Source: Escherichia coli (GTDB lineage: Bacteria > Pseudomonadota > Gammaproteobacteria > Enterobacterales > Enterobacteriaceae). Taken from it: 64,000 nucleotides of DNA. The notes beneath the pieces are model-generated. The model searched no databases, was not told the origin of the DNA, and was given only the letters and a program-made list of their open reading frames with translations. The position numbers and the translations under genes are program-made. This document shows positions 5,242 to 64,000 of this stretch, one piece after another (the first letter of the stretch is position 1; every line of letters starts with the position of its first letter). The stretch is from the NCBI RefSeq assembly GCF_003991155.1, contig NZ_CP031294.1. One strand, given 5' to 3'.

Positions 5242-5431
5242 GAAAAGTCAAATCGGGATGGCGGATTTATATCACACTTCTCCTTTCAATTATAGGTATA
5301 TACTTACCTACCTATGCATATACCGTTTAACGGCTGTTCAAATTCGTATCTAGTAACTCACTAATATATCCCTATGATTGCGGCTGTGAGATCGCATTTT
5401 AAACCTCACAGCCATATAAATAATGTCTAAA

Positions 5432-59885: not shown

Positions 59886-60074
59886 TCAGAAATAACCAAG
59901 TACCGAACCGACTGGAAAAACAAAAATCCCAACTACACGAGCCAAGGTCATGCCAGCCTGAAACTGGAGATCGCCAGAGCAAACAAGTTTTATAATGTTC
60001 GATACCCAACCGGCGGCCATGAGGGCAAGAATTGCCAGCCAAATTTTTCCAAAGTGATTTGAAAACCAGTTCAT
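59886..60074 (-). CDS. small two-TM membrane protein (62 aa)
   Basis: MNWFSNHFGKIWLAILALMAAGWVSNIIKLV...VVGIFVFPVGSVLGYF. ATGA overlap with the upstream ORF. Confidence 0.35.
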   Translation of the reverse strand: MNWFSNHFGKIWLAILALMAAGWVSNIIKLVCSGDLQFQAGMTLARVVGIFVFPVGSVLGYF

Positions 60075-60322
60075 ACAACCGCCTTAGTCACAGCATGATC
60101 CTGAGTAACCGGATGAACTTGAGGTATCGCATCCACCGTCATCCCATCCAGAGTGACAGGACGCTCTACTGGAGTGGTGGTAATTGTCGTCGACGGAGGT
60201 GTGGTGATGGATGAACCCGGCATCAAAAGGCTCTGGCCGGCTGGAACGGCTACCGTCGCCAGTGAAACTATAATGAGAACGTAGGCCATTGGTTTCAGCC
60301 TCTTTCTTTGAAAATTTTCCAT
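60071..60322 (-). CDS. small protein with an N-terminal TM/signal-like helix and a Thr/Pro-rich region (83 aa). It lies in the alternative frame of the 60084-60578 ORF.
   Basis: MENFQRKRLKPMAYVLIIVSLATVAVPAG...TTPPSTTITTTP... Confidence 0.3.
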   Translation of the reverse strand: MENFQRKRLKPMAYVLIIVSLATVAVPAGQSLLMPGSSITTPPSTTITTTPVERPVTLDGMTVDAIPQVHPVTQDHAVTKAVV

Positions 60323-60578
60323 TCGAACTGTCCTTGTTGTTTTTCTCCTTCACTAAAGGCCGTGTACTTTTCGCTTCGCGTGAAGAACCAGAGGCAACAA
60401 TCGCCCCCACGTTCGCAACAACTGACGCTTGATTATCTAAACGTTCATTCAGCAACCGAACGGTAGTCTCTAGTTCATCAAGACGTGACATAACACGACC
60501 GCTAAACAATTCGGCCAAAATTTGACGTAAAGAACGAGGACGTTTAGTTGCAGAAGTGAAATAGGTTTGACGTGCCAT
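60084..60578 (-). CDS. ORF whose N-terminal about 85 aa look genuine (charged coiled-coil MARQTYFTSATKRPRSLRQILAELFSGRVMSRLDELETTVRLLNERLDNQ). The distal part overlaps the 60071-60322 ORF and is low-complexity.
   Basis: Two overlapping frames are open. Which one is translated downstream of about 60330 cannot be decided from sequence alone. Confidence 0.3.
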   Translation of the reverse strand: MARQTYFTSATKRPRSLRQILAELFSGRVMSRLDELETTVRLLNERLDNQASVVANVGAIVASGSSREAKSTRPLVKEKNNKDSSNGKFSKKEAETNGLRSHYSFTGDGSRSSRPEPFDAGFIHHHTSVDDNYHHSSRASCHSGWDDGGCDTSSSSGYSGSCCD

Positions 60579-60723
60579 GTGGACTCCATCCAGTGTCAGA
60601 AAGAGTTGCGGCTGGCGATTGCCAGCCGCCTTTCTCGTTCCATCCTGGAACTGTGTCTTACCGACACATTGTCATCCTGACGCTGATAAGATACATGATT
60701 TAAAATGATAGGTAAACACTTAC

Positions 60724-61368
60724 TTACCACTTGTTATAAACAAAACCAATATCTTTCTTGTGAGGCATATCTGCTGCTGAAAAAGCTGCGATCTTCGCGA
60801 GTCGATCACATATTTCATTTTCACGATGCCCGGCGTGACCTTTAACCCACTTCCAGCGAACATTATGTCGACTTGCGGCCTCATCCAGACGTTTCCACAG
60901 ATCAACATTCTTTACCGGTTTTTTATCAGAAGTCATCCATCCATTACGTTTCCACCATTTCATCCACTGTGTCATGCCGTTTTTCAGATACTGGCTATCA
61001 GAGTACAAAATAACGTTGCATGGATATTTCAAACGCTCCAGCCCGATAAGTGCGCCCATCATCTCCATGCGGTTATTGGTGGTGCTATGAAAACCATCTG
61101 AGAACTCGCGTTCCTCACCACGATACTGGAGAACGATACCGTAACCGCCCGGGCCACCCGGATTTTTAAGGCAAGAGCCATCACTAAAGATTTTCACGGT
61201 TTTGAGCTGGGGATTGAACTCTACGACAGGCGTTGTGGGATTGGTGCGGGGAGAATTTTTGTTTTTGGCTTTTTTGCGAGTTTTTGCTTGCGATCGGGCT
61301 GGTGTCTTCGTCGTCATATAAACTCCTGAATCAAGCGCCGCGCCGATTTTTTCCTCGCGCGTGCGCAC
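60724..61368 (-). CDS. RNase HI homologue with a 45-aa basic N-terminal extension
   Basis: …[25 protein letters not shown]…[16 protein letters not shown]…[23 protein letters not shown]…[17 protein letters not shown] aligns residue-by-residue with E. coli RnhA catalytic motifs (the catalytic Asp/Glu/Asp/Asp positions are present). Confidence 0.8.
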
Positions 61369-61439
61369 ACGCGTGCGTGTTAATAATTATTAAAATAAAC
61401 AAATTACTTCCCAGAACAGGTTTTTTATAAACCTGAACT

Positions 61440-61890
61440 GAACGAACGAAGTGAGTGAAGTTCACCTCGAACGAAGTGAGAGGTTGTCTTTTCAGGTAAT
61501 ACTCTCCCAGGGAGGTGAGTATAAAATTCCTCACCAACCTGGTCGTTTCATAACCTGAAAAGCTATGGTCTAAGTCTACTGCCAGCTTAGACTTGGGAAG
61601 TTATGGATGACAGCACCCCAGAACCGAGATCTTCCCACACTTTATGAAGGGGAGTACTGGATTCAACCTCTCGAAACACCCCAGACTCGACAATCATAAA
61701 GTGACCCTTGTCTCTGCTCACTTTGGTTCCCCCTTCCCCGACACCTAAACGGCACCGGTTCTACGCTGGTAGTGAGCTTTTTTAAACCTGACGCCAGTGA
61801 CGCTTACCCCCACCCATCAGGTCGAGTCTCCAGTCTACGACTGGAAACTATCAGATCTTAGCACTTACAATTCACTTTATGAATAGTTTG
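61440..61890. other. about 450-bp non-coding region with direct repeats (CGAACGAAGTGAG x2) and several short inverted repeats. No ORF.
   Basis: The repeats are aacctgaactgaaCGAACGAAGTGAGtgaagttcacctCGAACGAAGTGAGaggttgtc..., ctcccagggaggtgag...ctcacc and ctacgctggtag plus a T-run. No tRNA-like T-arm was recognised. Confidence 0.4.
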
Positions 61891-61900
61891 TACTTATCTA

Positions 61901-62155
61901 TCATTTCGATTGATTATTTTTTCGACCATGTAGTTGAACATTCAAGGCAAACACCTCGTTGATCAACTCACCTAAAAGCTGTTCAACAAGTTCGCGATGC
62001 TCCCCAAGATGCAAGCACTTAATTGCCCATTCGTACAAGTTGAAAGCCTGCTCACGATCTTTCATCATTTCACGAGCCTGGGCCAGAAAATCGCTCTCTA
62101 CGAGCGCAACGACATTAGTCGGATATGACATGTTGGTTTCCTTAAAGTGGTTCAT
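61901..62155 (-). CDS. hypothetical small protein (84 aa)
   Basis: ORF only. Confidence 0.35.
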   Translation of the reverse strand: MNHFKETNMSYPTNVVALVESDFLAQAREMMKDREQAFNLYEWAIKCLHLGEHRELVEQLLGELINEVFALNVQLHGRKNNQSK

Positions 62156-62317
62156 AAAATCGATTTTAAAGCGTCTGGGAAGGGGTTCTAGTGGATTCTG
62201 TAGTGGTGTTCAGGTCTGGGAGTCTCTGATATAAAACAGCCTGCTTCCGTATATTAATAATTAATATGTAGTTATTTATATATACAGAAGCAGGCTAATT
62301 ACAGACGCCAGAACAAA

Positions 62318-62911
62318 CTAAGCAGCCTTCTTTGATGGTCTTTTTTTCCTGATCACATTCGCAGGATCATACCCTCCCAGACTTTTCATGACGTCCAAAG
62401 GGATCTTGCTTATAGAGTGCCCAGCGTCCTGACAGAATCCTCGAAAAACAACGAGCATACTGCCACCGGGGTTGATGTTTACTTCTACCTGACCCAAATT
62501 GACGTCAGGCTCGACAAACGCTACGCGGCCACCAGACAGAATAATCGTCTCATTCGCACACTCTGTTGCACGCTCATACCACTTTGTATCGAGGGATTGA
62601 GGAATTAGCATCACTGTTGTAACTCCGCGAGCCTGCTCACGTATAGCCGCATCAATCCAGGGGGAGATTTTGGAGTAGGGTGGATTGAGGAAGGCAATTG
62701 TACCTGGCTGTCCCCATTCAGATTTCAAAGCATCACGCTCAACGCCTATGAAATTAGGCAGCTTCGCATTGTCCTTGTTGCAGGCAACGTCAACATCAAA
62801 TGTCACTCCAAGATAACGTTGAATGGCAGAAAACAGCCAGTCAGGTGTTCTCCAGAGGTCACGAAGAGAGTTGTCGCGCTTTCGCTGTTTGATTTTTTCG
62901 GCTGCAATCAT
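62318..62911 (-). CDS. phage-type DNA N6-adenine methyltransferase (Dam family)
   Basis: The 197-aa product carries the catalytic motif IAFLNPPYS (NPPY) in the arrangement typical of small phage Dam methyltransferases. N-terminal …WRTPDWLFSAIQRYLG… motif. Confidence 0.75.
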   Translation of the reverse strand: MIAAEKIKQRKRDNSLRDLWRTPDWLFSAIQRYLGVTFDVDVACNKDNAKLPNFIGVERDALKSEWGQPGTIAFLNPPYSKISPWIDAAIREQARGVTTVMLIPQSLDTKWYERATECANETIILSGGRVAFVEPDVNLGQVEVNINPGGSMLVVFRGFCQDAGHSISKIPLDVMKSLGGYDPANVIRKKRPSKKAA

Positions 62912-62922
62912 CTTCTTTCTCG

Positions 62923-62942
62923 ATAGGTAAGTGATTACCTAT
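62923..62942. promoter_or_regulatory. perfect palindrome ATAGGTAAGTGATTACCTAT, 12 bp upstream of the methyltransferase start
   Basis: Read directly. It belongs to the second palindrome family (see findings). Confidence 0.55.
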
Positions 62943-63094
62943 TTTTGCATTTGATTTTATGTCTGACAATCAAATAAAACGCGCCAGAAATGCAAACGAG
63001 AAGCTCTCTGGCGCGTTTTTGTGGTGCTGGATATGTGATTGGCTTACCCAGCACTATAAAGCTCTCTATGGGCTTTATTTTCAGTAGGGGGACG

Positions 63095-63904
63095 TCATCC
63101 AATAGTGTACTCCGCTACAAACTTCTTAACGATCGGTGATTCTTCGTTCAATGTTAGATTTCCACCGTCTCTAACGGCAATTCCTGTCGCTGGAAATACA
63201 GCCATCATTTGCCCAGCCTGAGTTGACGCAGTGTTAAGCGGATACGGTTTTTCTGGATTGCTCATTAAAGCAATCTTAATACTATTACTTGTAGCCTTCT
63301 TTTCTGTGAGAAGGTGTCTCATGGAAATTACCGTGTAAACACTAATATCTGGACCTCCGCTAAACCAATTAAGAAGGTTTAATATCTTATCCTTTGCTTT
63401 GACAGGCGCGTTTTCGTAAGCGTCTAAGAAAATATCTGTTTCTAAGCCTGCTTTATTGAAAAACGAATCATCTTTATCACTTAAAGTAAAACGAGGACCT
63501 CTTGCAGTACGCGCTTTTTTATTTGTGTTGCTATCATTTGACTGTTGAACTTTTAATTCATCATTAACATCAACACACTCTTCAACCTCAATCAATCCCA
63601 ATTGTTCTGGCTCGTTTTCGGCAGATTCAACACTTTCAGCGTTAATTACGTTTATAGGCTCATGCGCTAACTCCAACTCATTTAAAGCAGAGCTGAAATC
63701 ACCTGCTTTTTCTTCATTGAACAGTTCTTCGGCAACATCATCAGAACTCATGGCTACGCCAGCATCGAGGCCGAGCAGCAGATCGTCAATATCATCAGTA
63801 TTTTCAACCTGTGCGGCTTTTTTTACTGGCTCATCAAGTGATTGCAACATGGCTGTCAGCTCGTCCAGATCATCATTTGCCATTACATTTTCAACCGAAC
63901 TCAT
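63095..63904 (-). CDS. hypothetical highly acidic protein (269 aa)
   Basis: The N-terminal 130 aa are about 35% Asp/Glu (…DDLDELTAMLQSLDEPVKK…ENTDDIDDLLLGLD…). The C-terminal half is neutral. Confidence 0.5.
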   Translation of the reverse strand: MSSVENVMANDDLDELTAMLQSLDEPVKKAAQVENTDDIDDLLLGLDAGVAMSSDDVAEELFNEEKAGDFSSALNELELAHEPINVINAESVESAENEPEQLGLIEVEECVDVNDELKVQQSNDSNTNKKARTARGPRFTLSDKDDSFFNKAGLETDIFLDAYENAPVKAKDKILNLLNWFSGGPDISVYTVISMRHLLTEKKATSNSIKIALMSNPEKPYPLNTASTQAGQMMAVFPATGIAVRDGGNLTLNEESPIVKKFVAEYTIG

Positions 63905-64000
63905 GTAAGTCTCCTTCTGCTTGGTTACATTTGCGTTTCGATAGCTACATTTTGACTAAACCTATCAGGCGGAAAAGTATTAAATACAGGCAGGAAATGA

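Follow-up and report, generated by a model that had tools for sequence, protein, structure and literature searches.

The stretch of DNA analysed here, a window of 64 kb whose positions are counted from its first letter, belongs to an SSU5-like phage-plasmid of Escherichia coli. Among the phage-plasmids of E. coli, Klebsiella, Salmonella, and Enterobacter, those of the SSU5-like type rank with the commonest; they are frequent in clinical Enterobacteriaceae and can bear resistance genes. The genes surrounding the element that concerns us lie on the minus strand throughout and make up a long early operon of nucleotide metabolism and replication, whose order is nrdAB, thyA, folA, a DnaQ-like exonuclease gene, dam, the gene for a 76-aa protein, a gap, and the gene for RNase HI. 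The last of these, rnhA (60724-61318, minus strand; Pfam PF00075, RNase_H, E=1.2e-45), stands directly downstream of the element, and directly upstream stands the small gene (61901-62131, minus strand), the product of which is an all-helical protein of phrog_5343, a family of unknown function, with no Pfam match and with only non-specific helical-bundle matches (E>1) to its single-sequence AF2 model (pLDDT 74). Over the 650 bp around the element, identity is 97-99% to the E. coli elements CMS-2020a, PhiR41_1, and Cyrano and 87% to Salmonella phage SSU5 and Klebsiella relatives; literature searches found no paper on the transcription or the lytic origin of SSU5 or pHCM2. The replicon type is IncFIB, and plasmid replication is assigned to a RepA encoded elsewhere. 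The closest annotated relative, pPK8276-110kb, has host-like metG (methionine-tRNA ligase) and apbC genes aboard the phage-plasmid, along with Pol III theta- and epsilon-like genes (L287, 686-3977); in the coordinates of that relative, this group of genes is some 10-13 kb away from the element.

The gap between the two genes, about 530 bp (61369-61900), contains no conserved reading frame, and the scarcity of open reading frames between the RNase HI gene and the small gene, to which a preliminary description of this DNA had drawn attention, is borne out by a longest ORF of 44 aa. That description had set the structured region at 61440-61890; the conserved unit actually extends on the minus strand from about 61405 to 61883 and is larger than that description had recognised. 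It had also recognised no tRNA cloverleaf, in agreement with ARAGORN, which finds no tRNA or tmRNA gene in the whole window. The interval is present in 686 plasmid records from Klebsiella, Escherichia, Enterobacter, Salmonella, Citrobacter, and Cronobacter, nearly all of them non-mobilizable and about 110 kb long, and nothing is annotated under the match save a neighbouring CDS (rnhA or a hypothetical protein) that overlaps the ends in a few records. It is found in 231 of 5426 complete E. coli genomes (4%), at 231 plasmid and 2 chromosomal places, with nothing annotated under any of them; RefSeq records annotated by PGAP likewise have no feature here, and the window itself contains no second copy.

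This distribution tells against the earlier suggestion of a recombination or att-type site, which we have set aside: the elements are plasmids, the chromosomal place among the matches listed (H80) takes in the query at full length, and those matches include no short core. No integrase is annotated within ±6 kb of the element in SSU5 and PhiR41_1 or within ±14 kb in pPK8276. Several public records or contigs begin or end in the element itself or no more than about 300 bp away (the end of NZ_CP040729.1, the contig ends of L004 and L046, and the starts of PQ492289.1 and NZ_CP080358.1), which may reflect an assembly artefact at repeats or hint at a physical DNA end.

The loci compared came from 80 viral contigs reached through the RNase H protein, from 86 viral stretches reached through the repeat described below, and later from metagenomes; no scan, whether of viruses, genomes, or metagenomes, gave a copy below 87% identity, and the metagenomes, where 39 of the 95 hits were chance 18-mer matches, added no deeper clade. 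Within this set the core of the unit (61405-61826, minus strand, about 420 nt) retains 89-95.5% identity between clades, against 74-82% for rnhA, the small ORF, and dam in the same clades, and the flanking genes evolve three to four times faster than the core. Column conservation is 0.94-0.998 over 61433-61816, bar one 30-column block at 0.90, and 0.72-0.89 in the flanks, the coding flanks included. Among 54 distinct homologues the variable sites fall evenly on the three codon phases (33/32/32, p=0.99) and indels are of 1-2 nt. This is non-coding sequence under strong purifying selection. A protein gene or a type I toxin of the hok kind was rejected, there being no periodicity and no ORF beyond 44 aa, with none of the ORFs hydrophobic. 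The conservation data also effectively refute the notion of a decayed gene or a neutral spacer with chance repeats, to which we assign a vanishingly small probability: short ORFs of up to 44 aa could be taken as its remains, but conservation exceeds that of every neighbouring gene, codon periodicity is absent, covariation is present, and the sequence is invariant across plasmids of Escherichia, Salmonella, Klebsiella, Enterobacter, Citrobacter, and Cronobacter.

Relative to shuffled sequences, the folding energy of the interval reaches z=-5.9 on the minus strand and z=-4.3 on the plus strand. RNAalifold, applied to the minus-strand alignment of the 54 distinct copies, predicts 128 pairs, eight of which (19-55, 20-54, 24-50, 68-126, 143-205, 254-276, 255-275, and 416-426) change on both sides with pairing kept; three of these fall in helix H1, one in a long-range helix GCUCAC/GUGAGC, one in H3, two in H5, and one in the terminal hairpin. 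Paired cells amount to 99.6%, against 35-48% after sliding of the partners, and compensated cells number 71, against 1-5 when partners are slid by 1-3 columns and 18.6±3.2 in column shuffles, a control inflated by shared ancestry in an alignment of shallow diversity; because all copies are at least 87% identical, most helices never vary. The same pairs are canonical in 99.6% of cells on the minus strand and in only 88% on the plus strand, because 11.6% of the cells are G·U. Since these wobble pairs fit the minus strand only, the fold belongs to that strand, in whose sense the flanking genes also run, and covariation specific to G·U indicates a single-stranded fold and not a duplex protein site. 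Compensation above controls and strand-specific G·U pairing, the general marks of a structured RNA, are thus both found here, at shallow diversity.

In the order of the predicted transcript, the core consists of H1 (61785-61823), which opens with an invariant CUCGAYCUG, H2 (61716-21 with 61772-77, enclosing 61738-58), H3 (61638-61703), H4 (61594-61637), H5 (61568-61592), and H6 (61488-61562), after which come the repeat region and the terminal hairpin, all on the minus strand. The inverted repeats of the preliminary description are real (CCAGGGAGGTGAG / CTCACCAACCTGG at 61507-19 / 61530-42, plus several more). Its hairpin with a T-run at 61770-61785 fared less well: the T-run exists, but no terminator is called there by the scan on either strand, and we rejected an intrinsic terminator at this place, which in the minus-strand consensus fold is an unpaired A-rich linker between two helices (columns 57-65). 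Short sequences recur within the RNA, namely UCGRKUCUGGGGUG twice, 63 nt apart (61614-61627 and 61677-61690), GGGAAG three times (about 61733, 61631, and 61412), and CUCACUUCG twice, and through these internal repeats the RNA may offer a partner several places to bind.

Covariation and G·T wobble would be satisfied equally by single-stranded DNA, which counts against the RNA reading and brings in the idea that the interval acts at the level of DNA, as a packaging (pac/cos), partition, or recombination/att site or as a folded single-strand DNA signal. The extreme conservation, the short repeats that could bind proteins, the public contigs that end inside or beside the element, and the tolerance of single-stranded DNA for G·T pairs all speak for such a site. 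We nevertheless hold it to be very improbable, as compensatory changes that keep hairpins and strand-specific wobble are unexpected for duplex protein sites, the terminase and structural genes are far away, the matches listed for the host chromosome include no partial copy, and a correctly oriented promoter with a covarying 5' hairpin fits transcription.

The predicted promoter is of the sigma-70 type and lies on the minus strand at 61855-61883, with a -35 TTCATA (61883-61878), a 17-bp spacer, and an extended -10 TGcTAAGAT (61863-61855), which places the predicted transcription start at A61849/G61848. The same layout recurs, equally far from the core, in all ten clade representatives compared: a -35 of the form TTyAyA, then 17 bp of spacer, then TGnTAnnAT as extended -10. 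In SSU5 the scan called the promoter independently on the minus strand (TTTAAA-17-TAAAAT with TG, 9/12), as the sole promoter-like locus in 1 kb (two overlapping registers); the window copy, at 8/12 plus TG, falls under the scan threshold and was not called, which counts against the RNA reading. A correctly oriented promoter in a conserved position is thus present, the window copy being the weaker. Only 1-2 nt past the predicted start, and about seven bases past the -10, comes the 5'-terminal stem-loop H0 (61827-61847, minus strand; UUUCCAGUC-GUA-GACUGGAGA), which occurs in 21 sequence variants with at least seven unrelated stems, all folding just before the invariant CUCG. A promoter, then a 5'-terminal stem-loop, then a constrained folded body is how an RNA gene, or else a long structured leader, is built.

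Between the stop codon of the small gene and the -35 lies a degenerate copy of a palindrome, GATAAGTACAAACTAT (61884-61899, minus strand), which is seen in every clade and reads GGTAAGTACTTACC in the SSU5 clade. In the form ATAGGTAAGTnnTTACCTAT the palindrome has 10 matches in the window, where 1.2 are expected, at 5295, 9507, 26506, 28422, 29929, 42748, 52484, 55156, 60711, and 62926 (each +13). Of the copies whose surroundings were read, most either closely precede a ribosome-binding site or come right behind a stop codon or terminator, some of these settings being judged by sequence context only, and the right half of the palindrome often overlaps a TATnAT hexamer. It is a candidate phage-repressor operator, or else an intercistronic RNA hairpin.

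At its other end the core closes with the terminal hairpin (61410-61442, minus strand), the upper stem of which is compensatory (UA46/GC8) and which has two G·U pairs possible on the minus strand only; an invariant GGGAAGUAA follows. A U-tract stands 6-9 nt away from the stem of this hairpin and is missing in the Klebsiella clade, and the scan called no intrinsic terminator on the minus strand over 61320-61450, a result that counts against the RNA reading. Beyond lies an AT-rich spacer (61380-61404, minus strand) that is poorly conserved (column conservation 0.78, with indels) and might serve for processing of the RNase E type or as a second rnhA promoter. The 5' untranslated region of rnhA (61319-61379, minus strand) is GC-rich and conserved (80-95% between clades) and carries the palindrome CGCACGCGTGCG, a hairpin by an A-run, and an AGGAG ribosome-binding site; in SSU5 the plus strand of its counterpart scores terminator-like. 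The rnhA gene is found downstream of the element in 70 of 73 loci, all of them reached through the repeat, the exceptions being L129, L144, and L160. In L160 (7555-9100) an IS3-family element replaces rnhA directly downstream and the RNA element is intact, the family assignment coming from a reading of the translations, with two transposase ORFs.

The arrangement invites an explanation in which the whole is a purely cis-acting leader, a 5' untranslated region of about 530 nt that senses a signal or a protein, in the manner of a riboswitch, an attenuator, or an antiterminator, and sets the expression of rnhA and the genes downstream, with no role for a free RNA. The absence of a terminator between the element and rnhA, the near-constant presence of rnhA behind it, one of the three exceptions having an IS3-family insertion, and the GC-rich, conserved character of the untranslated region itself are what such a leader would lead one to expect. 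The element matches no riboswitch or leader family, though; known expression platforms need far less than 420 nt of near-invariant sequence; the rnhA homologues of other phages (L065, L066, L074-82), with 80-88% protein identity, occur without the element; and the spacer that links the element to the untranslated region is its least conserved part. We regard this alternative as unlikely, while giving it more weight than any other rival.

A permissive cmscan of 60000-64000 against Rfam 15 (E<=10) gave no match within 61386-61900, and its one weak chance match in the vicinity, to HCV_SL2531-SL2549, lies in the 5' untranslated region of rnhA (61332-61385; E=0.28, far under the gathering score). 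The preliminary description had set this search beforehand as a test that could refute a structured RNA; that nothing was returned means only that the RNA lies outside the described families. Its proposal of a small RNA gene or a riboswitch-like leader thus stands as to an RNA gene or leader, given a promoter kept in position, a covarying 5' stem-loop, compensatory pairs, and conservation above the neighbours, but not as to size, which is about 440 nt and hardly small, nor as to riboswitch identity, with no riboswitch or other Rfam family at E<=10.

The 13-bp direct repeat reported earlier was found again as CGAACGAAGTGAG, at 61443-61455 and 61468-61480, with no third copy in the 64 kb. For the degenerate pattern with one mismatch, 0.32 matches are expected in the window and 5 of 100 shuffles reached two; chance comes nowhere near explaining two exact copies at a distance of 25 bp. 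Copy A (61443-61455) lies in a plus-strand stretch (61434-61464) that could fold into a 14-pair hairpin capped by a GAA triloop and containing two blocks of tandem G·A, and copy B (61468-61480), which reads CUCACUUCGUUCG in the RNA and is flanked by ACCT/AGGT, is invariant in 54 of 54 copies. Folded with RNA parameters, both 13-mers form predicted tandem-G·A/GAA mini-hairpins on the plus strand, and the repeat region of the minus strand, the RNA sense, folds as one inter-repeat hairpin (z=-2.8); that the best structure of the 13-mer is on the strand opposite to the RNA counts against the RNA reading. The sequence CGAAC-GAA-GTGAG conforms to the C(GNA)G mini-hairpin, the purine-rich strand of the motif offering C-G, G·A, A·G, R-Y, and C-G around a GNA triloop. 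Mini-hairpins of this kind are known at the G4 priming site, at ssiA of RSF1010, and at the N4 hairpin promoters (PMC13037366). Like the extraordinarily stable DNA mini-hairpins described by Hirao (PMC13037366), the 13-mer has a C-GAA-G closed by an R-Y pair and tandem sheared G·A in a Y-GA-R context; unlike them, its 13 nt are fixed and usually lengthened by Watson-Crick flanks that vary, and pairs or arrays of it are found in every prokaryotic domain.

The 13-mer extends well beyond the phage-plasmids. The 45-nt stretch over both copies is 93% identical to T4-like viral contigs, and T4-like viral carriers of the 13-mer include L087, L093, L109, L116, L134, and L156. A two-copy search yielded, among the matches listed (L167-L286), over 120 genome contigs spread across numerous phyla of Bacteria and Archaea, with the motif in pairs or tandem arrays, where chance would give about 0.005 in 596 Gb; the carriers include haloarchaea (beside tRNA genes), Bacteroidota, Acidimicrobiia, Deltaproteobacteria, Saccharibacteria, Altarchaeum, and Mycobacterium. 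Loop variants elsewhere are GAA, GCA, GGA, and AAA, and the variants either covary (CGAGCGAAGCGAG) or alter the middle loop base alone; CGAGCGAAGCGAG and CGAACAAAGTGAG co-occur in 13-mer arrays. Of 264 distinct instances, 76 have flanks complementary over 3 bp or more, whereas a slid control gives 7 of 264; the 40 instances that reach 4 bp or more show 32 different 4-bp flanks. With crude ORF calling in 120 genomes, the 13-mer had no bias in orientation relative to neighbouring ORFs; tRNA and tmRNA scans, and Rfam scans of six unrelated loci with the 13-mer, gave nothing; and no paper on the 13-mer or its variants in a relevant context was found in the literature searched. The motif looks like an undescribed pan-prokaryotic tandem-G·A/GNA mini-hairpin repeat. 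In T4-like environmental phages (L093, 8927-9845; L156, 3900-4518), two inverted motif pairs about 170 bp apart flank an AT-rich stretch, which in L156 contains two direct repeats of about 50 bp each; a T-rich tract follows each outward-facing motif pair, and the site sits between gp55-like and UvsW-like genes, as read from their sequences only. Such an arrangement recalls an origin bearing opposed single-strand initiation signals, or a pair of terminators set back to back.

The interval could be the lytic origin of the phage-plasmid, producing an origin transcript in the style of ColE1, T4, or mitochondria: a G-rich RNA would persist in an R-loop, the adjacent RNase HI would cut it into a primer, and the GAA mini-hairpins of the plus strand would be single-strand initiation signals. 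A dedicated promoter with a long, structured, G-rich transcript (GGGUGGGGGU, GGGGAAGGGGG), the position next to rnhA within an operon of replication and nucleotide metabolism, the known priming and promoter sites of C(GNA)G mini-hairpins cited above, and the assignment of plasmid replication to the IncFIB RepA elsewhere, which leaves the lytic origin without a site, all fit this picture. Against them stand a flat GC skew with no inflection here, the location of the mini-hairpins on the template strand inside the transcribed part and not on the displaced strand downstream, as in the primosome assembly site of ColE1-type origins, an upstream small protein without a Rop-like fold, and a covariation that indicates an RNA or single-stranded DNA fold and not a hybrid. 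The element resembles ColE1 RNA II in its length of about 500 nt, its promoter, and its highly folded G-rich transcript, the link to RNase H being one of adjacency here; it differs in having no conserved antisense RNA I promoter, no Rop-like protein, and no demonstrated origin features, and in a replicon typed as IncFIB with RepA elsewhere. A Rop-like partner role for the 76-aa protein was itself considered and rejected, as it has neither a Rop-like nor any other significant fold match. A ColE1-like origin is possible but unsupported, the G-rich transcript and the adjacent rnhA being circumstantial features, and for an origin transcript of any of these styles we consider the chances slim.

Two further comparisons help to place the element. 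With the GOLLD, ROOL, and HEARO-type RNAs, which are large structured RNAs of phages and mobile elements, it shares a length of several hundred nucleotides, many helices, a phage-like carrier, discovery through conservation and covariation, and the want of a known biochemical role; unlike them, it gives no sequence or structure match at E<=10, is not beside tRNA genes, is confined to SSU5-like phage-plasmids of Enterobacteriaceae, has its own sigma-70 promoter, and is itself located directly upstream of rnhA. With the immI leader of P1, in which the c4 RNA derives from the icd-ant transcript, it has in common that a non-coding RNA heads an early operon of a phage-plasmid, that in SSU5 an anti-repressor gene lies three genes downstream, and that short repeats could pair within the transcript; however, c4 is an RNA of 77 nt with an Rfam family, whereas the element matches none, and the ant gene is absent in the clade of the window.

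Our best reading is a new structured non-coding RNA or a long processed leader, and we think it reasonably probable that the minus strand of the interval carries the gene for a structured non-coding RNA, about 440 nt long and hitherto unannotated. We rank a stable processed RNA first, followed by the pure cis leader, then the R-loop or primer origin, and then the DNA-level site. The transcript would start at the sigma-70 promoter with H0 and continue for about 420 nt in some eight helices, the unit would act as RNA, and its 5' hairpin and dense folding would make it long-lived. From the absence of a canonical terminator we infer read-through into rnhA; a cut in the AU-rich spacer (61380-61404) would probably free the structured part, or insulate it at the least, yielding a stable RNA and an rnhA mRNA headed by its own GC-rich hairpin. 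RNAs this large and constrained are usually central, in priming, in the regulation of lifestyle switches, or in the sequestration of host factors. The most likely activity of the stable processed RNA would be the binding of a protein or nucleic-acid partner of the early or replication programme of the phage-plasmid, a reading that the repeated exposed motifs (UCGRKUCUGGGGUG, GGGAAG, and CUCACUUCG) fit.

The fuller proposal, that SSU5-type phage-plasmids carry an undescribed class of large (about 440 nt) structured RNA, with its own promoter, needed in the plasmid-to-lytic programme, and that the 3' module of this RNA belongs to a hairpin repeat spread through all prokaryotes, is one we advance tentatively, as plausible but somewhat short of an even chance. 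If it is true, the step in the passage from plasmid to lytic life would be replication priming, copy-number control, or early-operon regulation, and the repeat CGARCGNAGYGAG, whose closing stems vary and which occurs in Bacteria, Archaea, and T4-like phages, would be a family not yet described; should the repeat have a common role, for example in end protection, termination, or priming, that role would interest a wide readership. For the SSU5-like phage-plasmids themselves, the most conserved stretch of the early region is no protein gene and is annotated in no record, and the RNA element would offer a testable handle on the control of replication or induction in phage-plasmids.
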